Assembly: GCA_031835245.2 (NCBI GenBank)
Contig: JAVKOQ020000108.1
Coordinates: 62,001 to 126,000, forward strand
Direction of reading: 5' to 3'
DNA length: 64,000 nucleotides
Source of the DNA: Balamuthia mandrillaris
Lineage: Eukaryota
Part shown: positions 24,505-63,186 of the stretch, one piece after another
Numbering within the stretch: position 1 is the first letter of the stretch
How the letters are laid out: each line of letters begins with the position of its first letter
The notes under the pieces: generated by a model
Database searches by the model: none
The model's input: only the letters and a program-made list of their open reading frames with translations
What the model was told of the DNA's origin: nothing
Program-made: the position numbers and the translations under genes

Positions 24505-27500
24505 TTATCTACCACCGTTTGTGGACGCTAAAGCAGCCACCGCTGAGCTTGTCGCGGCCTTGACTCCTCTCACGCCATCCCTTCCGCGCTTCATCCGTTG
24601 CTCCACCTCCATCTCGGCCTCCACCTCGGCCTCCGCCTCCAGCTCCAGCTCTTGCTCCTCCATCACCCCGCTGAACCCACAGCAAGAGGGTCTTCTGTCT
24701 CTCGAGGTCATCATCGCTCTCCCTCCGAAGGTCGCGGTGGAGAAATCGTCCTCATCGACCTCGGTGGTGGTTCCGCCACCGCATGAAGATGCGATGTTTC
24801 TTCTCGCCGAAGAGGAAGAGCAAGAAGAGGAGGAAGTCTTGGAAGAAGAAGTCAAGGAAGGGGGTGAAGATGGGCTTGAGGAAAGCGAAGAAGCCGCAGC
24901 GGCAGAGGAAGATGGAGCCGCAGCGGCAGCAGCAGAGGCAAGGAACGATTGCTGTTGGCGCTTATGTTTGGCTTCCCTGGAATTCTCCATCGTCAAGACC
25001 CTCACCCTGCTCTTCTTCTTTGGCTTCACCGCTGCCGTTGTCGAGAGTGAAGAGGTGGACGCTGACAAAGAAGAAGTAAACAGCGAGTCGGAGGCGGAAG
25101 AACGTTCCGAATCGCTGCGGTCATCATCATTGGCTTCTTCCTCCTCTCTTTGTTGTCGTCGTCGTTGCTGAGCAGCAGAAGAATGGAAAGAAGCTGAATA
25201 TCCTCCTTCTCTCTCGACCTCAGTCTCCATGTCGTGCTTCATGTCCTCATTGCAGCACAACAGGTAAAAGTACTCCGCACCGCAGAGCTCAAACGCGCTC
25301 AATGCCTCCTTGAAATGTCCCCGCTTCCTCTTCATCGCAGCCTCGTTATAATGTTGCTGTTGTTGATTGTGATGATGGTTCGGTTGATTATGGCTGGGAT
25401 GGTTTGATCCAATCAAGGAAGCAGAGGCAGAAAAGGAAGAAGGGTGGTTCGAGGAAGAGGAAGAGGATGAAGAAGAGGATGAACCAGAACCAATATTGAT
25501 GTACATGCCCATGAAGAGATGCGTCGCTCCCCTCTCGTGCTCCATCGAGTGAATCTGCGCCTCCTCCAAGCTCTTGCTCCAAAGCTTCGTGGAGCTCTTA
25601 GGGTTACCCGACAGCCACTTCAACAGGCCCAAGAGGCGCAGATAGCGGCTCTGCCCGATGGGATAGGTCTTGACGAGCTTCTCTAGAATGCGGGAGAGTT
25701 TGAGGGCACGTTCCTCCCACTTGATCATCTTCTTGGAGAGCAAGAAGACGTTGGCGCTGCCGGCGAGGAGCAATTCGCGAGTGCCGGCTTTGGGGGCTGA
25801 GGCGGATGGAGAGGGCAGCGGCTGACGAGCAAAGTTGGCGGAATTAGAGGAAGAAGCAGAACTGGAAGAATTAGAGGAAGCGGAAGAGGAAGAAGCAACT
25901 AAGAGCGAAGAAGGAGAAAGGGTGGAAGCAGAAGGTGAGGGAGTAGGGGCAGGAGCGGGAGAAGGTGCAGTGGGGGAAGCATCAGCGGCTGCGGCCGCTG
26001 CCGCGGCAGCAGCTTTGTTGGCGGTCATTTGCTCACGATAGCGCTCATAGTCCCACAGAGAGAGGCAGAGCTCCAGCACAAAACAGGTTGTCTCAAAGTC
26101 AGACCACATGACAAAGTGATTGGCCTGCGCGGTAAGCTGCCTTAACTTCTCGATGAGATAAAAGAGCAGCCGCTTGGAAGCGCGGTACTCTTTGTTGCAC
26201 CAATGGATCAGCGCGGTGACGAAATGGCGGAGAACGTGCTCGCGGTCCTTCCACAGCTTGCTGCAGGAGCTAAGTAAGTCTTTCTCGCGGAGCACATCCA
26301 AGGCTTGGTTCAGCTCTCCCAGGTAGAGCAGAGAGACAGCCTTGACAATCTTGGTGGAGAAGGGACTGACGGAGTTATCCTCTCCGACGATGCCGCGAAT
26401 GCCGCCTTTCATCTCTTGACTAGAGGAGGGGACCATCTGTTTGTCGTTGCTGTGACGGTGACGGTGGTGGTGATGGCGATGGTTGCTTCTCTTCTTCTTT
26501 GTCTTCATAGAAGAAGAGGAAGAAGATAGAGTGTCGCTGGTACTGCTGTTGGTTGTTGTTGTTGTTGTGGTCGAGTCGAAAGCAGTGGTGGCAACGGTAG
26601 TAGGAACGGCGGAAGAGGAACCAGAGGAAGAAGAAACGTCAGAGGAAGCACGTTTGTTCTTCTTCTTGCATTTCTTACACTTTTTGTTATTATGGTGATG
26701 ATGGCCGCCATCGTTGTTGTTTGTGGTCGACACGGCTGCAGAGCTTTGAGCCAATCTAGCAGAAGTGTTGTGCTGTTGTTGCTCGTCTGCAAAGAAAGCT
26801 GTTTCTGCCGACGAAGAAGAAAGAGAGGACCCTCCTCCTTCCTTGAAGCAAGGGTGCTCTAACAACTTGAGGCTGCGTCTAAACTTGCCACGCATGTTCC
26901 AGTACATGGCGTAATAGGCGAGGATGTACTGCTTCATGGCGCGATCGCCATAGCGCTCGCTCACCTGAAGGGCCTTCAACAAACGAGCATTGACCACCTT
27001 CCAATTGCCGTTCGTGAAGTGGATGTGACTCGTATCCAAGAGAACCGTCATCACGCACTCTGCATTCTTTCTCGAGTTGCCGCCAAACTCTTGTTGAGAG
27101 CCATCCACAGAAGAGATAGAGGAAGCAGAGGAACCAGAAGAAGAGGAAGCAGTGGAAGAGTCTGTTGCAGGATTTTGTTGGAGAGTGGTGACGAGACTGT
27201 TGGTGATCTCAATGGAGGAGCGAGCAAACTGTCGTGAGATACCACGCATGGAGTACATCGAGGCCGAGAAGTAGCACATAGCGGCATAGGCCCTGGCCAG
27301 CTGCTTGGTGGGCCTGCCCACGCTCTCCGCTGCCTTCACGCTGCGCGAGATGCAGGCAAAGGCCGAGGTGAAGTCCTCCGCCAGGAACTTCAGCTTATAG
27401 CAGAGGTAGTAGCACTTAGAGAGCTCTAACTGGGTGGCGTTGGTCGGGTCCTCCTTCAAGAGCATACTAAGCATGCCGTGATCCCCACGATCCGAAGCTG

Positions 27501-30500
27501 CGTTGGCTCCTCCTCCGCTGCTTCCACCACCCCCGCTGAGAACAGCGGGTTTGAATGCTTTCAACGAGGGAGTGTCTTTGTTAGAGGAAGAAGAGGAGGA
27601 AGAGGAAGAAAAGGACATGAAGCCAAGCAACTTCCGTTTGGCGAACTGGCGAAAGACTTCCACTCCGGTGGAGCCGAACCAACCGTTTCCCTCGGAGAGA
27701 GGTTGACCCAAAAGATCTAGCGCCTTGCGGGCGTGTTGCTCCGCTTTGGTAAGCTTTTTCAGGGAGAGATAGGCCTTGGTAAGTTTTCTCTCCCATGAGG
27801 CCAAACGGAATGAGGAGATCTCCTGATGAGCGGCGTTCTTGTTGCTGTTGCATTGTTGTTGCTGGTTCTTGGACTTGGAAGATTTGGAAAAGAAGAGCGA
27901 TCGACGGGAAGAAGACGTGGATGAAGAGGTCGAAGACGGGGAAGAGTCAATTGTAGAGGCTGAGGAGGCAGAGGATAACGCATTGAGGCGATCAGCAAGA
28001 GCAATAGCTCGTTCATAAAACTCTACAGCCTCTTGGTAGGCAAAGATGGAGAGAGCCTGCTTGCCCGACTTTTGGAAGTAGAGTAGGGCTCTAAGGTCGT
28101 TGCCAGCACTGTTCCAGTGGTAGGCCAACATAGGATAGTAGCAGGAAGCAGCGTGACTGAGAGACTTGCTGATGATAGCGGCTGCAGTGGAGAAGGGAGA
28201 GGCGGTGTAAGGGGATGAACCGGCAGAAGATGGCACTGGCGAAGAAGAAGGAAGAGTTGAAGCAGTAGATGAAGAGTGTGATGAGCTGGTGGAAGCAGTT
28301 GGGTAATACGAACTACCGCTCTCAGCTCCGCTTTCCGTCTCGCTCATTTGCTGTTGCTGCAAAGCCATCGCTCTCTTGCTGGTCTGCAGCTCCAAGTCCA
28401 ACAACACGTTCTCGTAGTGCTCCGCTGCCTTCTTGTGCCATTGCCTTCGTTGGCTGGGAAGAAGAGTAGCGTAGACCGTTTCCCAAATGATGAGATGGTT
28501 AAAGTAATAGACTTCTTTGACCGTGCAGCCGTCTTCGGAGCCTCCGCTGCTGCCGCCGCCACTGCCATAGCCGGAGCAGGCGGCGCTGCTATAACCACTG
28601 CCGCTGCTATAGTGGTAGCCAATGGGAACGCTGCCACTGCCGCTGTCGTAATAGTCGCCATAAGGTTCTTGGGTCAAGCCGGCTGCTCCTTTTTCTATCT
28701 CAGAGTTAATGAGGGAGGAACGCTTATCAAAAGAAGTCTTGGAACGGCCCCGTTTGGTAGATGATTGTTTTTCAGACCCAGATGATGCCTCAAACTCATC
28801 AAAAGAGACGACGGAAGGAGCAGCACGTTCGCTGACTGCGGGGGCAGCGGTGGTAGACTTGTTGGAAGCAGTCCATTGTCCGGTTTCTTTGAGCGATGCG
28901 GAGAGGAAAGAGAAAGGCTTCTTCACCTCTTCGGTAGTTGCCTCATCCTCGCTTCCCGTCATCACCTCTTTGCCCTTGCCTTTGCTTTTGCTTTTGCCTG
29001 CTTTGCTGCTTTGTTTTGTTTCATTCTCCGATGACGTCGCGTTGCCACTAGAGTCGCGTTGTTTGTTGGCAGACTTGGCGATCTTTATCGTCTTTGACTT
29101 GCGCAAGTTGGAGGGAAGGGCCTTCTTGCTGCTTTGGGCAGGGGCCACATCCTCCTCTTCCTCCACCGCTGTTTCCACGATAAAGCTATCCGAGTCGCTG
29201 CTGTGTTTCTTACTCTTGCTCTTCTTCTTGTGCTTATGATGCTTCTTGTGATGTTTCCGTCGGTGATGACCGCTGCCAGTGCTGCTGTAGTTGTGGTGAC
29301 GGCGATTGCGACTGTAAGTGATAATTCTGGCACGGCCCGTTCTGTTCGAGGAGAAGCGCGTCCTCTTCTTCTCAGAGTGAACGAATTGCAGTTTGGTCAA
29401 AACGTTGAGGTCCTCTTTCAGCTGCTCTTTAGTGTAGTTTTTGGGGTAGATGCTGTGCAGGACGTTAAAGTCAAAGGAATCGCCGAGGATGCTGGCTACT
29501 TTCAGCGTGAGCTGTTGGCTGGGCTTCAGCTCATCGATGCGGCTGGAAATGACGCTGTGCAGCGCGCTGGAAAAGCTAAAGGTCTTGAGAATGTCCTCTA
29601 ACGCAGCATCGCTCATCAAAGAGTTGACAGGGTCCACAACGTTGTTGTTGGAAGAAGGTGAAGAGGCGTTGGTCAAGGTACCACCAAAAGTGGCCTCCAG
29701 GGAGTAGGCTGCAGGTAGCTTGGGTTGAAGCTGCTCCTGGTCTTGTAGGATCTGAAAAGCGCCAGAGTTCTTCAATGAGATGGCCATCTCCAACGAGAGG
29801 AGAGGGTGTCCCTTAGTCTTCTCGAACAAAGGAACGAGGCGTTTGGGCATTTCGGGGATGCCCAAGTACTTGCACACCAACTTGAGGACGTGTTCGGTGG
29901 GCAAAGGAGAGAGGGTGATAATGTGGATCTCCATCCCTTTCTTGTCCTGCCCATTGCTGTTGAGAATGGCCGAAGACGAGTGATGGCGCCCAGGGGAGCG
30001 TGGAGTATCCGAACAGGAGTCGGAGCAAGAGCTGGTGCTGGAGCATTGGCTGCAACAACTGTTGCCGCTGGTGCTAGAGCAACCAGTGCCACCGCAGGTG
30101 CAGCAAGATGAGCTGGTGCTGGTGCCACTGGAGCTGTCATCAGAGGAGAAGGAACGCAGGCAGCCTAACTGCTTGATCTTTTCCAGCTCCGCCTTTTGAG
30201 TGTTGTTGAAGAGCTGCCGGGTGGTAATTACAAAAAGGGTGGGGCAGATGTTCTTGATAACGCTGTGGATGAGAGACCAAGAAGTCTGATCGAAGCAGTG
30301 GGCGTTTTCCATGATGAAGAGGCGCGGCGTCTCCGTAGGGTCCTGCAAAAAGTAGAGTAACAGCTCTCTGGTCTTGTCGATGCGCGCTTGGTAGGACATC
30401 TGCGCGGTGAGATGATTTTCTGGGAAACGGAGGTCCAGAACGCCATTCAAGAGAGGTGCCAGATGAGCATTATTCTCTAGCTCTAGTTGGCTCAGCACAA

Positions 30501-33470
30501 ACTCCGCCACTCGTTCCTGTCGTTGCTGTTCCTGCTCCAACAGCTCCTGCTGCTGTCTCTCCTTCTCCAGCTCGGAGGAGGAAGAGGCTTGTTGCTTGCC
30601 GTCCTTGTCCTTGTTCTTCTTGCCCTTCTTCTTGGAGTCTCGCTTATCTTTCTTGGTGCTGTGATCAGGAGGCAACTGCTGGTGTTGCTGGTTATACTCA
30701 GGAGGGGCAATCACTTTGTCGATGACACAAACGCTCTCATCGCTTTCATCGTCCTCCGACCCAAAGCCCTCCTTGTCGTCCCAGCTGCCTCCCCCTCCTC
30801 CCATCATCTCGAGATCCTCTGCGCCCATATCCTCTCCCATGTCGCCTCCGCCACCAAACTCCATGGACCCTCCATCCTCATCCAGATCGCTGCCCCACAT
30901 CTCATCGGGGTCATGATGATAGTAGCTGCCGTCCACGCTGGTTGCCATTTGGTCGAACAGGGAACGAAACACTCCCTTCCAGCTGCCAAAGGGAATGGCG
31001 GCGTTGCGCCAGAAGAGAGGGTGATGGGCAGAGGTGCCACTCTCACAGAGCGTCACCACATTGAGCTCTCTGGCCTTGCGGATCAGGTCTTTGATGAGGT
31101 TACTCTTACCCATGCCGGCATCGCCTTGGATGATAATGACGGCACCGTCGCCCTCCTCTTTGAGGACGCGAAGTTTTTCCTCCAAGAATTTGCGCTCTTC
31201 CTTGCGGGCTACGATAATGTCCTCCGAGAAGGACTCCATGAAAGAGTTCTGTTGTTTGGTAGTAGATGTGGAGGCCGTTGCAGGAGTACAGCCGCTATTA
31301 ATGGTCGAGGTTTCTGTGGCAGTCGCCTTTGTTCTGTTGATTTTTAAAACCAAATAAGATTGAGATTTCATACTTGAGAAAGAAAACAGAGGAGGAGGAA
31401 AGAGAGGAAATACCTTGCTTCAGTCAAGCTGGCATTCTTATCGCTGACCAGTTTAAGGGAAGATGAGGGTTTTACGCTGGTGCCCGGCTGAAGCTGGTTG
31501 CGAACAACTGAAGACGGAGAGGCAAGCGAGGAGGGAGAAGGAGACAAAGAAGAAAAAGGCGAGGACGAAAGGAATGGCATGGGGTAGATGGGCAAGCTAA
31601 CGCAGGTGCTGTTCTTGTTGGTTGTGTCCCCACAGACTACCTGCTCAAAGGCCAGATGAAAGGCATCTTGTTGTACACTACCCGGTGTTCCTTTCTTGGC
31701 TCCTTTCTTCTTGCCATCATTAGCATTGGTAGTACCAATGTTGATGTTGTTCTGCAAGTCGTCTCCGCCGTAGCCGCCGATGCTGTGATCGCGGAAACGC
31801 ATAGAAATGTGGTAGGTCTCTTTATCGCAGAGAATGGCGGAGGAGTCGGCCGTTTGCATCAGAGAAAGGGCTCTGTCGACTACATCGCCCTTCACGATGA
31901 ATTCTCGCCTTGCTTTGGAACCCACAAAGGCGGTCAGGGCTCTTCCCGTTGAAATGCCGATCCTCGTTAGTTCGCTTATCTTCTTGATCTCCATTGCCGT
32001 CTATTTGTGGTTTTTTGGTTGGTAAGTGAAACACTCGAGGAGAAAGGATAAAAGTACAAACCATGACAGCACGCAAGGGATCATCCTCATGATGCCAAGG
32101 GTACAATCCAAAGGTCAAAATAATGACAGTGCCCTTGTCCTCCACCGACATGGACTGCAAGTTGCCTTCGTAGTGCTCCAAGACCGATTGCACAAAGCTG
32201 GCCACGCTGTGAGCCCTCTTGACAGCGTCCAGAGGGTCGACTTGGGAGCGATGTGTCCTGGAGGGCAACTGGCCCGACTCTTTCAGGTCCTGAAAGTACT
32301 TCCCGCTGAGGCAATAAGTGTAGGCCTCGTGGGCCAAGGTAGGCAGCTCGATGGCCACGATGGAGACGCGTCGCAGCTCGCCAGCGTTGTTGGGGATCTG
32401 CAAGCCAAGCCGAGAGCAGACCTTGTCTTGAAGGAATGAGTCTGTCTTGGCGATGGTGGACCAGGAGAGGAAGGAGCGCAGGGCGAACTCCATCTGCTTT
32501 GTGATCTGTTGGCTGAGCAAGGTATCGGTGGGTGAAAGGCCCTTTTGGGAATGAATGATTTGGCTACCACCGGTTACGGAACGGCAGATTACAGGTCGGG
32601 AGATCTCTCTTTTGATCTTCAGAACTCGCTGACAGCTGCCAGGGGCGGTGGCAGTTGTGTTGTTCGCACCTGCCTTGATCACAGGCTCCGCTTTGCAGAA
32701 CTTAGAGATCTGTTCCCAAGCCTCCTGGGAAACAAAGACCTGGTCAAGAGTGTCCGTCTGGGCAGTGGCCGCAGCAATCTTGGCGATCTGTTGAAAAGGT
32801 CGGCCGGAATACATGTACAAAAATCTGCTGCGACCAACCCAAAAAGTGTAGACGGTACCGCAGCCGATGCGCGCGGAAAGGGATAAAGAAGAGGAGGCAT
32901 CATTCATGCGGGTGACCACCATGGCACATTTGGTGGCCCGCCAGACCAGCGTTGATAGCTGCTCGTCGGCGGCAGCGCTGTTCCAAAACACCAGCATTGA
33001 TGTGCCCGAAAGGTTTACTATTTCTCCATTGTATAACTGAAAACAAGGAATTCAGCTGCCAAAGAAAGAATGCAGGAAGGAAGGAAACAGGAAGTAGGAA
33101 GCAAAGAACGTACCTGGATCTTTTCTATGACCTTCTCCAAGTAACTGTTGAAGGCCTCCACATCCAGGTCTAAGTCCGCCTCGAAGGCATTCACTCCGGA
33201 AGCGGGGTTTTGTTGGGGTTGTTGGCCAGGTTGTGTGGTGGCAGTGGCCTTTGCGAGAGGCGCTTTGGGGGGGCCTATCTGGAGCTCCAGAACGGCCCCG
33301 TCAAAGGTCTCCGCGGTGGTCACGCTGGCCGGGCGCTGTGGGTCATGCGGGTTGTTCTCTCCTTTGCCCTGCAACTCATAGCTGCAGGACTTGTAGAGCT
33401 TTTCTACCACCGAGTTGGGCACGAAGCTTGCCAAGACCTCGAAGTAGGTGCCCGATGGAGAGCCCGACAT
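24505..33470 (-). CDS. Soluble adenylyl/guanylyl cyclase-like (ADCY10/SgcA architecture): two class III cyclase domains, STAND P-loop ATPase and a helical/TPR region; ~4 exons
   Basis: DKGTVIILTFGL.PW.HEDDPLRAV, RIGISTGRA...VGSKARREF.V.GD; Walker A GDAGMGKS; LFIMENAHCFDQTSW; KTKGHPL; VISSRIDEL..SQQLTLKVASILG. Confidence 0.85.
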
Positions 33471-56533: not shown

Positions 56534-58374
56534 TCAATTCAGCAGAGAAAGGAAGGGCAGGAGGGTGGCAGCGCTTCCACCATCACCGTCTTCCCCGTCA
56601 GAAGGGGTACCATCTTCTTCCAGACCGTCATCAAGTTCGCTGGCATCCGAGAAGCTGTCGGAGTACTCGGGTTGCTCTCCGTCTGCCCTCCCGTCCTCCA
56701 AGCCATCCTCAATGCCATCTTCAACGCCGTCTTCAGCTCCATCAGCAACTCCGTCTTCAACGCCATCCTCAACTCCGTCTTCAGCTCCGTCTTCAACACC
56801 ATCCTCAACTCCGTCTTCAGCGCCATCCGTTCCATCGGCAATGCACTCGCAAGAAGACAAGAACAGCAAGTTGGCAGCCGGAGAACGAGTCGTGGATACA
56901 AAGTCAGGGTATCCATCCTCGTTGAAGTCGCCAAACACTCCATTCAAGTTGCCAGCACTCACAGAGTTAACTACGCCAGGTGCCAAAGTGAAGGCACCCG
57001 TGCCGTCGTTCAACAACAGCTTGCATGCGTCCAGGTCATTGAAAATGAAGGCGTCCAGGTCGGAGTCGCCATCAACGTCCACCAACGCAAGGGCCTGAGA
57101 GTCGTCGGTTTGGGTGGCAGTCAGGTAGACAATATCAAAGTCTGTGGGGGTGGAGGTTCCAAAGAGGATCTTTTGGTTGTGTTGTGGTTAGCTTGAGAAG
57201 AAACAAAAACGAGAAGAACAGAAGAGACAGAGAAGGAGGCATTACCACATCAGAACACAAAGCGCATGTGGCATAGAAGTCGATGTACTCGTCGTCATTA
57301 ATATAGCCCTGTTAGACGACAAAGGAGAGGCAAAATGTTAGCTTTCGATATAGAGATATAAACGACAACATGCCCTCGAAGAAACGAACCTTCTCGAGAC
57401 GAGTGTACTCTCCAGCTGCCAGGTTAATAAAAACCCATGATGCTCCTAGAATGCCGGTTGGTGCGTTGAGAACAACTGCCACCGTGGGAGTGTCCATGTG
57501 GTTAAAGTCATTCCTGCTGTACTGACCATTACCAAGAATAACCAAGTCCAGCCTAGCATCATCATTCAAGTCGTGCTGTTTGGTATCAAAGAGCAGATGT
57601 TTTTGTTAACATCCCCAAACGTTGAAGAAAGAAGGAAAGAAAGAGAGAGAGAGAGAGAAAGAGAAGTACCGTTTGTCCATCTACCGAGGAGCCTCCAAAC
57701 CATTCAGACTCGCCCTGAAAAGCTCCCTTCAGCTCATAGTCCCTGTAGACGATCTGGTCCCCCCAGCTCAGGAAGTTGTCCATTTCGGTTTGCAAGTCCA
57801 GGACGTCGGGGTAGTCATCTCCGTTGAAGTCACCCATTACAAGGGCGTTGGTGTACTCGGTCGACTGGGGGGAGGAGTCGTCCCAAGGCCACACGTGCAC
57901 GAAAATATCATCGGGGTCCGAAACGAAAGTCTTTTAAAAAAAATTACAAAATGGTTAATTGTTATTGTTGAAAGCAACCCAAGTTTAAAGTGCGTACGGT
58001 GATGCGTGTGCCGCCGCCAACACGATGTCGACGTCCTGGTCGGGGGAGGGATGGTCCAAAAGGCCCAACGCAAAGTCCTTTGTGAGACCCGAGCCTGGGT
58101 TGTTGAATTCAAAGTCCAACTTGGTAAAATTGCCGGCGCCGTCTCCGTACCAGATGAATGGACCCAGTAAGCCTGAGGACTTGCCCGTGAGGAGGTCAAG
58201 GTGTCCGTCCTTGTTAAAGTCATGGACTGCCGCTGCGTTCATGGTCTGGGTCATGTCGGAAAGCTCCTCTACCGTCTGCCAGTTGAGGCAGGGGCATGCC
58301 TCTCCCAACGCAAGCTCCGCAGAGCAGAAGAGAGAGAGCAGCAGAAAGGAGGCAACGGCCAAGTATCTCTGCAT
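56534..58374 (-). CDS. Secreted or GPI-type FG-GAP/VCBS repeat protein without a kinase; paralogue of the neighbouring kinase ectodomain
   Basis: Signal peptide; GEACPCLNWQ vs GEECPCHWQ; DFEFNNPG vs DFEFDNPG; LLFLSSCEC vs LLFLSTCEC; (EDGV/A)n stalk; hydrophobic tail SAATLLPFLSLLN. Confidence 0.85.
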
Positions 58375-58877
58375 TGTTTGTTGTGTATGGTGTGATGTGT
58401 ATTGGTCCGAAAAAATAACGACAACGTAGGATGCTTGAGTTTCAGTTTGCGTGGATGTGGGGCTCGAGGAAAACGGAAAGAAGGAGGAAGACGATTGGAC
58501 GTGTTAACTCAACTAGCCTTATAAAGGGAATTGGCTCTCCCACGTGAATCATCGTTTTGCTGATTTCAAACCTACGGGACCTTTTTTAACTCTCAGAAGC
58601 TCATTGCTTTTGGTGGTCAAACAAACGAGCAGAAATAAAACGCTTTACTGTTATTCGGGGAATTTATCATTGCTGCTAGCGTGTTTTCTTTTCCAAATGG
58701 CGCCCTTCCAGGAACAAGAGTCTTCGACCGTTTTTGTTCGGCAGAAAAACTGTGTTTCGTTGCATAAATCCGGTTCAAAGTTTGAACTTCAAACCCGCAA
58801 AACAGTCCACACACCACAGCCATGGTTCCGCTCATTGACCCTCTCTCTCTCTATCTCTCTCTGTCTCTCTCTGTCTC

Positions 58878-58918
<41 letters not shown>

Positions 58919-59119
58919 ATCTCTCTTGCTCCCAGCTTGTGTGTCCCTCTCTCCTCGTAATGTTACTTTTTTTCCTGACTACAATTCACCCCAATCAGAA
59001 ACATATGATAAGTCTACAGGAGTAGAGAGAACTGCGCCATCGGAGTCAATTAGGTTGCCAGACTATGACGGCATAGGGCAAGAAAACAGATAATCCCTTG
59101 GCGTCCCCGGTAATAACGG

Positions 59120-59320
59120 TACACCAGTCCTACACTAAGGCGGCGCCAAGATCAAGCCGATCCATGGGACAACGAAAATAAAGCAAAATTAGTAAAAGGA
59201 AAACAAAAAACAGAGAAACAAAAAATAACCCACCTCCGGCGTGCCTAATCACGGCTTGTCTTACGACTCGCTATAAGCAACGGTGCCGGCACCAAAGCAA
59301 CCTTACCGCCTACCGCCCCC
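59120..59320 (-). ncRNA. Predicted Fanzor omegaRNA (scaffold plus a guide from flanking DNA)
   Basis: Lies between the Fanzor stop codon and the element end. Stems AGGCGGU/GCCGCCU and CAAGCCG/CGGCUUG, plus a GUC-GUAA-GAC GNRA hairpin. Boundaries inferred. Confidence 0.6.
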
Positions 59321-61656
59321 TCACAGAGGAGGAGGAGGAGGTGGTAAGTGCTTGCAACGTAAAAAAGCGGATCAAGATGTTTCGGGCGGCGTTGGCATCT
59401 CGATCCGCCTGGTAGCCACACTCGGGTTGGGGGCACCGAAAGGTCTTGTTTCCCCCCAACTGGTGGTGGACTTGGCCGCACTTGCCGCAGGTCTTGGAGG
59501 TGTATTCCTCATCGCAGAGGCAGACCGTACAGGACGGAAATTGCTGGGCCTTGTTGAGGAGCCTCTGCCTGAAGCGATAGTGGGACCAGGTGAGCATGGC
59601 TCTGGCCGTTCGCGAGCCAATGCGGCGGTGGCCTCGCCGCACCATCTGCTGGCTCCTGAACTCTGGCAGAAGGATGAGGGAGAAGTTCCTGACCAACCAA
59701 GACACGAGCTTCTTGTGGAGGTCATCCACCAGGTTGCGGATCCTCTGGCGAAGCCGAGCAGCGGCCCTTCGGAGACGGCGCCGTTGTCTGTGGTTGACCT
59801 TGGTGCCCTTACTCTGCATGCGATCCAGGCGGTGGCACAGCTTGCCTATCTCGTTGATGTCCGCTTTGCCCCACTCGGTGACCTCCCCGCAGCCGTTGTA
59901 GGTGGTCATGAATGTGCGCACTCCTGGATCCAAGGCGATGATGCCTGCCTCTCTCCTTCGGTGCTCACGGGCTTGGCTCTCGCCCATGAGCTTCAAAGGC
60001 TGAGGCACGCAGAGGTAGTAATGGCCCAGTCGAGTGTCCTTCACCAGACGAACGGCATAGAGCACCTCTGACGGAACTTTGTAGTTCTTGTCCCTCGCTT
60101 TGATTCGCGCCTCCCCGAAGAAGAGTTGGCGGATAGAGCTGTTGTGGTTCCACTCCCTGGCTTGGATGCTGAGAGACTGGCTCTTGTCCTTCCTACCACG
60201 GAACTTCATCTGGAATCCAGTCGTGCCTCTGCCCGCCGCCAAGCTGCTTTTCACGCCGTTGAAGAAATCATCGACAGCGTCACTCCGAATGAATCGAGGA
60301 GTTTCCAACACCCACGCAAGGCTCTTGTTCTCTCCCTTGAAATTGCTGTTATTTAGGAATTTCTTCCTGACTTGTTCCTTCATCTCATCACGAGGCATTC
60401 CTTGATGTTCACGATGGAACTCCACGGCCTTGTTGTAGGTCCATCGTACTGTGCCGAACCACTTGGCCAGCGTCTTCTTTTGTTCTGAGCGCGGATAAAG
60501 GCGGATCTTCTCCACTCGCCCCACTACCGGTTTCTCCTCTCCGTTCTTGCCTTTTTTGGTGAGCTGTACGGCTGGGCGAGACGGAACGAGTCCCTCGATG
60601 AGGCCTAACAAGCCTTTCTGGTTTTTCTCCTCTTCTTCCTTCTCCTTCTCCTCTTCCTCTTCCTCCTTCTTCTCCTTCTCCTTCTTCTTCTCCTCCTCCT
60701 CCTCCAACACCTTTTCTCCGTTAGGAATGTGCTTGCAGGCGGTGAACCATCCTGAACCACAGGCAAAGGGTTCTTCCAAGCACAAGGCTTCCGGGCGTAT
60801 TAATCTTCTCCCGATTAAGCTGGAAAACTGGTTCCAAAAGGGCTGGGCGGGTGCAGCCTGCGGCCTTCCACGCTTCTGTGCCCTTGCCTGAGGTGCCGCT
60901 GGGGCGTTTTCCGCTCTTCTTTTCCGAGTAGCAGTGGAAGTAGCAGAAGTAGTGGCGCGACCCCCTTCCTTGTGGACCCGACCGAAGTGGATGGCCAACC
61001 CGTGAGAGGTAGCAAACTTTTTTCCGCACTGTGGGCAACTTGCCATTCAGGCCAGCTTCCAGCAGCGTTGTGGAAGAGGCGCACAGAGGTTCGTGATGCT
61101 GTTCTTTTTTAAACAAAAGAAATCATTAGTGAGTGGTTGGTAACAAATTTTTTTTCCATCATCAAAAAATGTAGTGAGCGAGCAGAGAAAAAAGAACGCT
61201 ACCTTTTCAATCGGAGCAGTGCCCCTGCCTGCGGCTGAACCGCTTCGGTTTCCACCTCTGCCTCCTTCCGCTGGTTTCCTCCTTGTGTAGTAGAAGCGTA
61301 GCAATGAGAAATACGGTGGTGCGTGGAGCTTCGTGGATGTGTGTGTCTGTGTGTTTACTTTTGAAAAGAAAGAAAAGAAGAGAAGAAAAGAAAACGAGTA
61401 GCAGAAAAGTGTCAAGGCGAATGACGAGTACCAAAAGTTTATTGGCGGCAGCAGCAGCATGAGCATCCATTCCGTACACCCCCCACCCCACACCCCAACC
61501 CACCACTTTGCCTTCAAAGACGTGGGAGAAGGAAGGGTTGTTTTGGCGGGAAACATGCTCATTGGCCCAAAAGACTAATGGCGTGATTTCTTTTTTCGTT
61601 GTCCTTAGATCTTATGATCTTTGCGCCGCCTTATTCTCTCACTGTCACCGGTCTTA
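59136..61656 (-). mobile_element. Non-autonomous Fanzor-carrying DNA transposon with imperfect inverted repeats and a 9-10-bp flanking direct repeat
   Basis: taaggcggcgccaagatc at 59136 vs gatctttgcgccgcctta ending at 61633 (17/18 match, extending to ggacaacgaaaa). agtcctacac occurs at 59126-59135 and 61656-61665. No transposase ORF is visible inside. Confidence 0.8.
59310..61046 (-). CDS. Fanzor (Fanzor2-like, TnpB/IS607-related) RNA-guided RuvC nuclease with an N-terminal C2H2 zinc finger
   Basis: KIRLYP...KWFGTVRWTYNKAV (OrfB HTH); RuvC-I IIALDPGVRTF; RuvC-II LLPEF; EEYTSKTCGKCG...FRCPQPECG zinc ribbon; RuvC-III DRDANAARNI; intronless, 578 aa. Confidence 0.93.
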   Translation of the reverse strand: MASCPQCGKKFATSHGLAIHFGRVHKEGGRATTSATSTATRKRRAENAPAAPQARAQKRGRPQAAPAQPFWNQFSSLIGRRLIRPEALCLEEPFACGSGWFTACKHIPNGEKVLEEEEEKKKEKEKKEEEEEEKEKEEEEKNQKGLLGLIEGLVPSRPAVQLTKKGKNGEEKPVVGRVEKIRLYPRSEQKKTLAKWFGTVRWTYNKAVEFHREHQGMPRDEMKEQVRKKFLNNSNFKGENKSLAWVLETPRFIRSDAVDDFFNGVKSSLAAGRGTTGFQMKFRGRKDKSQSLSIQAREWNHNSSIRQLFFGEARIKARDKNYKVPSEVLYAVRLVKDTRLGHYYLCVPQPLKLMGESQAREHRRREAGIIALDPGVRTFMTTYNGCGEVTEWGKADINEIGKLCHRLDRMQSKGTKVNHRQRRRLRRAAARLRQRIRNLVDDLHKKLVSWLVRNFSLILLPEFRSQQMVRRGHRRIGSRTARAMLTWSHYRFRQRLLNKAQQFPSCTVCLCDEEYTSKTCGKCGQVHHQLGGNKTFRCPQPECGYQADRDANAARNILIRFFTLQALTTSSSSSVRGR

Positions 61657-61983
61657 GTCCTACACCGCGAGTCGATTACCGTTGCAGATGTCGTCGTGTC
61701 GTCGTGTGTTCCCCCTTTCACTTGGATACGGAATTTTTGCCTTTTTGAGATATGTATGATGTCATCCAGCCATGTGTCGACAACTATTTGATTTATGATT
61801 GGCTCTTATTTCAACAGAGATCTGCTGCAATCTTTCACTGTTGCTGCTTAAGAAAGCAAAAGTCAACTTTCCTCTTCGGATCTGTACAATAGATCATCTG
61901 GAAGCATGGCAACGAACACACCCCGGAACGCCATCTCTCTCGGGAGAACCCTTTCCGCTTTTTGCCCAAAAGCTGGTTGGCTC

Positions 61984-63186
61984 CTACGTCCGCCAGTGCG
62001 GCTGACGAGTTGCTGCTGCTGTCGTGGCTGCTCCAGACACACATGAGCTCAAGAGGGAGGGGGTGGGGCCACGGGCAAACGACGGAGTAGAGAAGGCCGT
62101 GGTTGTGGCGGCGCTTCTTTGCCATTCGCCTGGCGGTTGCGGTTGTAGGAGTTGCGGCGAAGAAGAGCCGTTGGGCCAGAAAGAAGGCACATGCTTCCCC
62201 CCTTCCTCCTCTCCCGCTTGCGTCCTCGTCTTTGAGCTCTTCTTTGGAGCTTTTTTGGGGCGGTCCAGATAAAAGTCGAGTTCGTTGGGACCCTGGCGGA
62301 GGAAGCTTTTCTTCACTCTCATGCCTTTCTTCCTGCGGAGCTCCGTCAGCCGCTGTCGTTCGATGTCGAAGCTTGTTCGTTCCCTATTTTCATCTTCCTT
62401 GGGTTGACCTTTCTTTGGTCGTTTCGAAACTCTAGTCTTGCTGTCGGAGGTTTGTGACGAATCCGTTTCGACACTTCGCCTCGGCTTTTTGGAAGGAGGT
62501 GAGCCACTGGTTGAGCGTGCGTTCTGAAGGTCATCATCTTCATCTTTTTCGCTCCGCTCTTGGCGATCTTCTATTTTGAAATGTTGATGAAGATGATGTT
62601 CTTCTGCTGAGTGCTGTGCTTGTTCACTCGTTCTTCTTGCGTGAAGCTCGGGCCTGTTTGTAGGAGGCCCGTTTGTGAAGGAGGAGTGAGAATAGCAGGC
62701 CGTCACTTGGTTGGAGTAGAGGGTATGGGTCGCTGGTGAAAAAGATGAGCCCCGGTTCCATCTGATCTCTTGTGGAGGTTCTTCAGGCCAACTTGAGGGA
62801 AGGGATTGCAACCAGGGTGCCGGGGTGACGCAGGGAGCAGCAGGGTGTGCAAGAGGCGGTGTCGCGTAGGACGAGTAAGCCGAGGACAACAGAGGAGGTG
62901 GAGAAGGCTCGTTGAAGGGGGCTCCCAGCGACATCTTTCCTCGGTTGTCCCTGTAAGTGAACAAACAACAACCGCAGGGGGGCTGTTCCAGGAGGGGGGC
63001 AGATGGCTGATAGGGATAGCTGGGCGGAGGGTAAGCCCGTGGGTCAGGGTAGTAGTTGTGGAAGGCTGTAGGATCTGGAGAAGATGAGGATGAGCCAGGA
63101 ACAGGAATAGGGATAGCTGGGCGAAGGTTGTGGGAAAAACGAAGAGTGCATGGGCGGCTTTCCGATGGTGTCCTCCAGTCTGTCAT
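61984..63186 (-). CDS. Hypothetical Pro/Ser-rich protein with basic NLS-like clusters, intronless
   Basis: 400-aa ATG-initiated ORF not caused by simple repeats; PPSKKPRR, KRPKK, RRKK; no domain recognised. Confidence 0.55.
   Translation of the reverse strand: MTDWRTPSESRPCTLRFSHNLRPAIPIPVPGSSSSSPDPTAFHNYYPDPRAYPPPSYPYQPSAPLLEQPPCGCCLFTYRDNRGKMSLGAPFNEPSPPPLLSSAYSSYATPPLAHPAAPCVTPAPWLQSLPSSWPEEPPQEIRWNRGSSFSPATHTLYSNQVTACYSHSSFTNGPPTNRPELHARRTSEQAQHSAEEHHLHQHFKIEDRQERSEKDEDDDLQNARSTSGSPPSKKPRRSVETDSSQTSDSKTRVSKRPKKGQPKEDENRERTSFDIERQRLTELRRKKGMRVKKSFLRQGPNELDFYLDRPKKAPKKSSKTRTQAGEEEGGKHVPSFWPNGSSSPQLLQPQPPGEWQRSAATTTAFSTPSFARGPTPSLLSSCVSGAATTAAATRQPHWRT

Follow-up and report, generated by a model that had tools for sequence, protein, structure and literature searches.

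Where does a mobile element end if its inverted repeat and its apparent target site duplication do not adjoin on one side? This question is raised by a locus in a 64,000-nt stretch of DNA (the window). The decamer AGTCCTACAC occurs exactly twice in the window, at 59126-59135 and 61656-61665 (both on the plus strand), and between these copies lies an imperfect inverted repeat of 43 aligned columns with 81% identity. The element is read on the minus strand; its 3' (right) end is the repeat at 59136-59178, directly beside the left decamer copy, and its 5' (left) end is the repeat at 61593-61633, which is separated from the right decamer copy by 22 bases. The ~45-bp imperfect inverted repeat and the direct repeat proposed for this locus in the original prediction are both real. 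Based on resampling of the window, a 10-mer adjoining one point would recur at most 42 nt from a second random point in ~1.1 of 10,000 cases, and the score of the inverted repeat, taken by itself, was equalled or exceeded by 42 of 5,000 random pairs. However, the ends are set independently by the read data described below. Duplications of 7, 8, 9, and 10 bp all lead to an identical empty site, and a register with only TA (59138-61631) is also available. Because several registers are equivalent, the length of the duplication cannot be fixed from sequence alone; the 9-bp duplication originally proposed is thus one of several that fit, and a duplication of 7-10 bp leaves a remainder of the right decamer copy that is possibly microhomology. 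No second copy or small derivative of the element was found in the 64-kb window.

The element is 2.5 kb long, multi-copy, and carries an intact gene for Fanzor2, the eukaryotic TnpB. The single ORF between the repeats (59310-61046, minus strand) encodes 578 amino acids with the domains PF12323, PF01385, and PF07282. It contains a DPG motif at 373 (D373), a shifted RuvC-II E513 before the zinc finger, and an RDANAA motif at 549 (D550); accordingly, the RuvC triad is intact, and the Fanzor1 TDG motif is absent from the 578-residue ORF. Among 16 solved structures listed, the best match was 9b0l (E 1.7e-27), which we take to be the mimivirus Fanzor2. Proteins with 85-96% identity carry the name Balamuthia mandrillaris and comprise 12 models that form three clusters; the neighboring genes in the window are eukaryotic. 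Judged by its domains and motifs, its eukaryotic genome, and a protein that is nearer to IS607 TnpB/Fanzor2 than to Fanzor1, the ORF is a Fanzor2. In a quick tree of 93 rows with weak support, the protein is on a long branch nested among the Fanzor2s of TnpA-linked IS607 elements.

We tested 76 of 156 related loci (124 of 235 candidate ORFs) for their neighbors. A serine recombinase is encoded just upstream at 54 of these 76 loci, one of which also has a Tc1-like ORF further away, and none of the 76 has a MULE domain beside it. A six-frame search of both the element and the window with a profile of 34 related TnpAs revealed no TnpA remnant, and no transposase domain was found among 132 other window ORFs (of 139 selected). 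We conclude that this is a non-autonomous Fanzor2 element with no transposase of its own. Most of the 156 related loci are plain IS607, and none of their end sequences is in common with the element; its exact end patterns had 0 matches in viral contigs and 0 in prokaryote genomes. A search for longer fused forms gave three matches, none named Balamuthia, and none named Balamuthia was among the best 120 of 4,812 matches in a TnpA profile search, which is a weak negative.

In run X5, a joint with a depth of 102 and its splice ends make it likely that the sense transcript has a GT-AG intron of 104 nt in its 5' leader (61099-61202, minus strand), and the NCBI model P0002 crosses the same joint. 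Two further joints in this run, together with their splice ends, indicate likely GT-AG introns in an antisense transcript, one of 86 nt (61089-61174, plus strand; depth 1062) and one of 135 nt (61474-61608, plus strand; depth 70). Across the joints of the spliced antisense RNA, no ORF is longer than 7 codons. The raw RNA run X22 contributed 0 reads over the right flank and is uninformative. We also considered retrotransposition but rejected it, as the leader intron is still present in the genomic copy and the ends are inverted. Based on distance, the scaffold of the omega RNA is expected in the 174 nt from the stop codon to the right end (59136-59309, minus strand). This region folds no better than its shuffles (z -0.72 to 0.85), and Rfam gave no family for it and one chance match.

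The ends of the family were read from other copies. Contigs of four public runs were compared with 58300-62500, and a second comparison covered 61618-62050. The inside of the element is much deeper than its flanks in both X11 (~70-560 versus 2-19) and X14 (~35-400 versus 0-13.5), with these values being summed depth and not copy number. Among the 24 loose-end rows listed (there are 467 more), three rows with 11 contigs break at 59134-59135, seven rows with 27 contigs break at 61630-61637, and none breaks at 59126 or 61655-61665. Two head-to-tail joints end at 59135; in one head-to-tail joint, a copy is located ~19 nt beyond the right end of another copy. Of the 26 contigs in the multi-contig rows listed at 61630-61637, 15 contain the whole terminal TA and 11 stop before completing it. 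We conclude that the family is bounded by the inverted repeats (59136-61633), with a sharp 3' end and a ragged 5' end. The element end had been placed 22 nt outside the inverted repeat; instead, other copies lose homology at the inverted repeats themselves, and none listed has the extension; for the family end, this is the outcome by which the original prediction was to be rejected. The other listed copies have in common the base at 59135, which is C, or G when read on the element strand. The flank consensus rows pool 3-7 contigs with an agreement of 0.45-0.6, and flank motifs from them are weak; a C that opens three flank lines after 61633 is, in such mixed rows, a weak hint.

The 22 extra bases (61634-61655, plus strand) were seen only at this locus and are private to it in the runs seen. 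Depth over 61633-61662 is 11 in X2, where it derives from one contig representing the filled allele, and zero in X11 and X14, even though the latter two runs hold many element ends. The X2 contig matches the right junction (61618-61909) with 0 differences; no listed contig shows the left junction. Within 58901-61900, no exact match of at least 8 nt that could have served as a local template exists for the 22 nt, and elsewhere in the window they have low-complexity look-alikes only. They form no hairpin (0 kcal/mol), and X2, X11, and X14 yielded no donor copy in which these 22 nt recur. Their first 4 nt are shared with one X5 contig.

Two contigs represent element-free alleles, i.e., record 5 of X2 (1164 nt, of which 768 nt are past the site), which shares its run with the filled allele, and record 1 of X11 (580 nt). 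Over the 30 nt read, both contain a single AGTCCTACA; the bases before it are CACC, which is the left-flank context, and not TCTT, which precedes the right decamer copy. Neither has the extension or a junction TA. In X11, the match to the left flank is 14/14. These observations support the predicted empty site with a single decamer. The X2 allele, which coexists with the filled one, has lost the GG or the guide seed. An X11 contig of 1193 nt appears to touch both flanks, as suggested by its matching depths (18.4 = 6.3 + 12.1 at 61747). The element-free alleles are diverged haplotypes and do not represent the direct pre-insertion state (within 159 nt, X11 differs by 14 substitutions in addition to 15 gap letters), and a third allele, found in X2 and X14, diverges at 61857 and is uninformative on the empty site. 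Alternatively, TA, the 22 nt, and the decamer can be matched to the X11 end if three gaps are introduced; a second decamer upstream in the X11 allele, outside the 30 nt read, is possible but the less probable state.

We suggest, with a probability of roughly 55%, that the 22 nt and the 7-10-bp duplication were made in one imprecise insertion of a transposase-less Fanzor2 element, likely by a transposase acting in trans. Here, we infer the single event, the source of the 22 nt, the mobilizer, the TAM, and the guide. The right end would have been joined precisely beside a target G (GG on the element strand here), and the left end would have been resolved imprecisely, carrying along 22 nt of donor flank or filler; filling in of the staggered target break would then have duplicated the first 7-10 bases beyond the junction. 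Such an insertion would be one-ended, as in Chlamydomonas CRe-1/2/3 and Replitron-1, and the flank would serve as the predicted guide of the nuclease, which would thus cut the empty allele. As described in PMC3627910, those CRe-1 copies whose 5' end departs from the consensus end are accompanied by duplications of 7-19 bp and sometimes by extra bases, and the target motif is just upstream of the 5' duplicate. For Replitron-1, PMC10288648 describes fuzzy ends that derive from the parental flank, together with duplications that vary, calls their cause unknown, and floats a role for Fanzor.

The sharp breaks at 59134-59135 compared with the ragged ones at 61630-61637 support a single insertion, as do the single-allele depth of the extension in X2, the single decamer of the element-free alleles, and the low chance (~1e-4) of the direct repeat. 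Counting against it are the terminal inverted repeats and the lack of a 3' hairpin, unlike in Helitron2 and the Replitrons, and the lack of a donor for the 22 nt in the three runs. Because both junctions are seen at one locus only, a duplication that varies across the family would be an extrapolation. As for the mobilizer, the original prediction of a Mutator-like activity acting in trans holds in part: an element with neither TnpA nor a transposase in the window is non-autonomous and would be mobilized in trans; however, the fixed base 59135, the ragged end, and the absence of MULE domains at the 76 loci argue against Mutator. In a more far-reaching scenario, which we consider improbable, the Fanzor2 family left IS607, gained inverted ends, and spreads in a one-ended manner, with the Fanzor cut setting the duplication and placing copies beside older ones. 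If true, such a Fanzor-cut, one-ended route would also explain the duplications of the Chlamydomonas Fanzor-Helitrons.

Among the alternatives, the best supported, although in our view unlikely, is that a TA-duplicating (Tc1/mariner/IS630-like) transposase inserted the element (59138-61631) into a haplotype with a pre-existing double decamer, which would give a TAM of ~(R)TAG. The TA register has the neatest symmetry and, with 9 bp plus TA, the longest perfect terminal repeat among the registers listed. Moreover, the 15 listed contigs with a complete TA run through it, the haplotype of the window carries other private indels, and the X11 end fits the empty site of this scenario if three gaps are allowed. 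TA-flanked inverted-repeat Fanzor elements, SPu-1 and others, are also common (PMC3627910). However, such an insertion requires an earlier 32-bp insertion and an element that landed exactly on its edge. In addition, both element-free alleles have CACC and not the extension beside the decamer and lack the junction TA, and the remaining 11 of the 26 listed contigs end before the TA is complete. The alternative offered by the original prediction, a TA duplication with GAATA as TAM, can still be entertained and would likewise need an older 32-bp local insertion.

It is considerably less probable that, as in the original prediction but confined to one copy, a DDE cut-and-paste transposase of a Mutator- or hAT-like type acted on a cryptic end located 22-24 nt beyond the normal one and left the 7-9-bp duplication that is usual for it. 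In this case, the recurrence of CTTA at 61653-61656, where the mirror of the other end extends for 5-6 bp, would mark the cryptic end (in 3.5% of trials, a random point had CTTA at a distance of 30 nt or less), and the removal of the donor flank by cut-and-paste would account for the donor not being seen. In PMC3627910, the Fanzor1 elements ROr-4, PBl-3, as well as MCi-4 are reported to have 31-42-bp repeats and 9-bp duplications; however, the three Mutator-type Fanzor elements described there begin with GGATA, CGATA, and GAATA and not with TAAG. A random 9-bp duplication would also not fix base 59135, and a symmetric target preference predicts G after 61633, where C or T is observed. Finally, the left end is ragged, and a MULE domain adjoins none of the 76 related loci.

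Least probable of all is that the Fanzor cut the empty allele ~10 nt past the TAM and that one-sided repair copied the element from its right end and switched to, or ended in, the flank of another copy. In its favor, the seed of the predicted guide coincides exactly with the duplicated bases, cleavage of the target strand by MmeFz2 takes place after bases 9-14 (PMC10432273), the protein has an intact RuvC triad, one head-to-tail joint places a copy ~19 nt past another's right end, and a Fanzor role in the Chlamydomonas duplications has been floated (PMC10288648). However, same-locus repair would copy the local upstream flank, from which the 22 nt differ, no donor with this flank was seen in X2, X11, or X14, and the guide equals the flank in any insertion, so that the seed match is not special.

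If the locus arose by one imprecise, one-ended insertion, as we favor, the junction also allows predictions for the nuclease. The TAM is predicted to be G-rich and to end in GG; its predicted position in the empty site is 61665-61668 (minus strand), which reads GCGG on the element strand. This reading is plausible and in line with the GC/G-rich motif that had been noticed upstream of the empty-site decamer, for which the role of TAM is likewise predicted. GG across the junction agrees with the common base at 59135 and, weakly, with the C after 61633. A review (PMC13565253) describes Fanzor2 TAMs as G-rich; however, the TAMs of mollusc Fanzor2s given in PMC10530073 and PMC10432273 are AT-rich (TA, TTA, TTTA, and TAG), which counts against a G-rich TAM. 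The guide of the omega RNA would correspond to the first ~15 nt of flank after the common G (59120-59134, minus strand), based on a comparison with PMC10711439. It probably starts at 59134 (U) and not, as first proposed, at 59135, because the latter base is common to the listed copies and fixed flanking bases are part of the scaffold in the published systems (PMC10711439); for IS607 TnpB, the same source describes that fixed flanking bases join the scaffold.

No literature on Balamuthia together with Fanzor or Helitron was found in a search that had most subscription papers and Repbase outside its scope, and Balamuthia is absent from the supplement of PMC10711439. According to the Balamuthia genome preprint (10.1101/2025.02.25.640156), transposons still await annotation, and PMC10432273 refers to the natural role of Fanzors as open. 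Against this background, a signature similar to that of the Chlamydomonas Fanzor elements is seen in an unrelated lineage, in a Fanzor2 family that is young, intact, and apparently transcribed. The family would also add another independent case in which a non-IS607 element has captured a Fanzor2. Should the insertion instead have duplicated TA, the family would simply be another member of a known element type. Because filled and element-free alleles are present in one run, junction rules, TAM, and homing are accessible in genome data that are already available.

The element combines traits of several known systems. Mutator (MULE) elements have a fixed 9-11-bp duplication directly adjoining both terminal repeats. 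Here, by contrast, the duplicate is 22 nt from the family-end repeat, and its length is ambiguous between 7 and 10 bp; for Mutator-type Fanzor elements, PMC3627910 gives a 9-bp duplication. For the invariant TA duplication of Tc1/mariner-IS630 elements, the picture is mixed: TA is found at both ends here and is complete in 15 of 26 listed contigs, but it is incomplete in the other 11 and absent at the element-free junctions seen. SPu-1 (SpuFz1) is similar in size (~2.1-2.5 kb), in its single Fanzor ORF, in its 30-45-bp inverted repeats with TA outermost, and in that no transposase was found; however, it is a Fanzor1 with precise TA ends and a CATA TAM (PMC10432273).

With the Fanzor2s of IS607/IS607EU (relatives of ACa-1, ISvMimi_1, and ISXfa1), the element shares the protein lineage. 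The right-flanking G common to the listed copies and the GG at this target may be a further similarity; for the left-flanking base, the other copies give a weak consensus only. Unlike these elements, it has no TnpA, possesses terminal inverted repeats, and ends in TAAGG/CCTTA and not in G. Because IS607 is described as making no duplication (PMC3627910), the duplication, like the inverted repeats, sets it apart from canonical IS607/IS607EU.

In its insertion signature, the element resembles the Fanzor1-Helitron2 elements CRe-1/2/3, which have an intact 3' end, an imprecise 5' end, extra bases, a duplication, and an upstream target motif and are non-autonomous (PMC3627910). It differs from them in encoding Fanzor2 and not Fanzor1, in having true terminal repeats, and in that the majority of the listed copies are not truncated but terminate a few bases at most from the 5' repeat. 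It also lacks the conserved 20-30 nt and hairpin beyond the repeat that characterize CRe-type Helitron2, with the 22 nt being unshared and at 0 kcal/mol. Similarly, Replitron-1 has one end fixed beside a target dinucleotide, a fuzzy other end, and a variable duplication that includes the target (PMC10288648). However, its fuzzy end is parental flank, whereas no copy with the 22 nt was seen here, and Replitrons have short direct terminal repeats and Rep (PMC10288648), whereas the repeats of the present element are inverted and no Rep is known for it.

Finally, PMC10711439 describes as Fanzor2* the Fanzor2s in non-IS607, inverted-repeat transposons of the alga Chloropicon and of molluscs. The Balamuthia element shares with them the Fanzor2 protein, the lack of TnpA, the degenerate terminal inverted repeats, and a duplication at the site (PMC10711439). 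It differs from them in its amoebozoan host, in one ragged end with copy-specific extra bases, and in a duplication length that, as far as seen, is not fixed.

The element-free allele in the public sequencing run X2 (record 5), a run that also contains a filled allele, departs from the latter precisely at the junction bases, i.e., at the predicted TAM (about 61665-61672). This junction change is what a cut-resistant allele would be expected to show. Unlike X2 record 5, the element-free allele in run X11 (record 1) retains the junction bases at the predicted TAM. Even inside one run, the haplotypes covering the flanks (58300-58830 and 61680-62500) diverge from one another by about 10% or more and carry numerous indels; near 61857-61907, three alleles are seen in X2.

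Comparison of run contigs with the window also identified internal joints, including 59192->61527, 59440->61567, and 59990->61542, which may represent internal-deletion derivatives of the Fanzor2 element, i.e., ghost-like copies; such derivatives would retain both element ends and, in part, the omega RNA region. In run X1, the joints 61633->59135 and 61613->59135 (depth 25-32), one of which has 18 letters in between, are candidates for head-to-tail element copies or circle junctions. The spacing is near a Fanzor cut distance.

Run X5 contains two GT-AG joints (61089-61174 and 61474-61608, plus strand) on the strand opposite to the Fanzor gene, and the depth of one of them is ten times that of the sense intron joint (61099-61202, minus strand). 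These joints argue that a spliced antisense RNA runs through the 5' end of the element; no ORF longer than 7 codons spans them. Because flank coverage is absent, X5 is probably RNA, although its label reads "DNA?".

Elsewhere in the window, an open frame of 2304 codons (24508-31419, minus strand) has only a weak match, to AAA_16.

Each inverted repeat contains a small GATC-loop-GATC hairpin (59151-59163 and 61608-61620); the two loops differ from each other, and the hairpins are no more stable than shuffles. In some viral relatives (L111, L118, L132, L135, and L153), the inverted repeats look subterminal and unevenly positioned.
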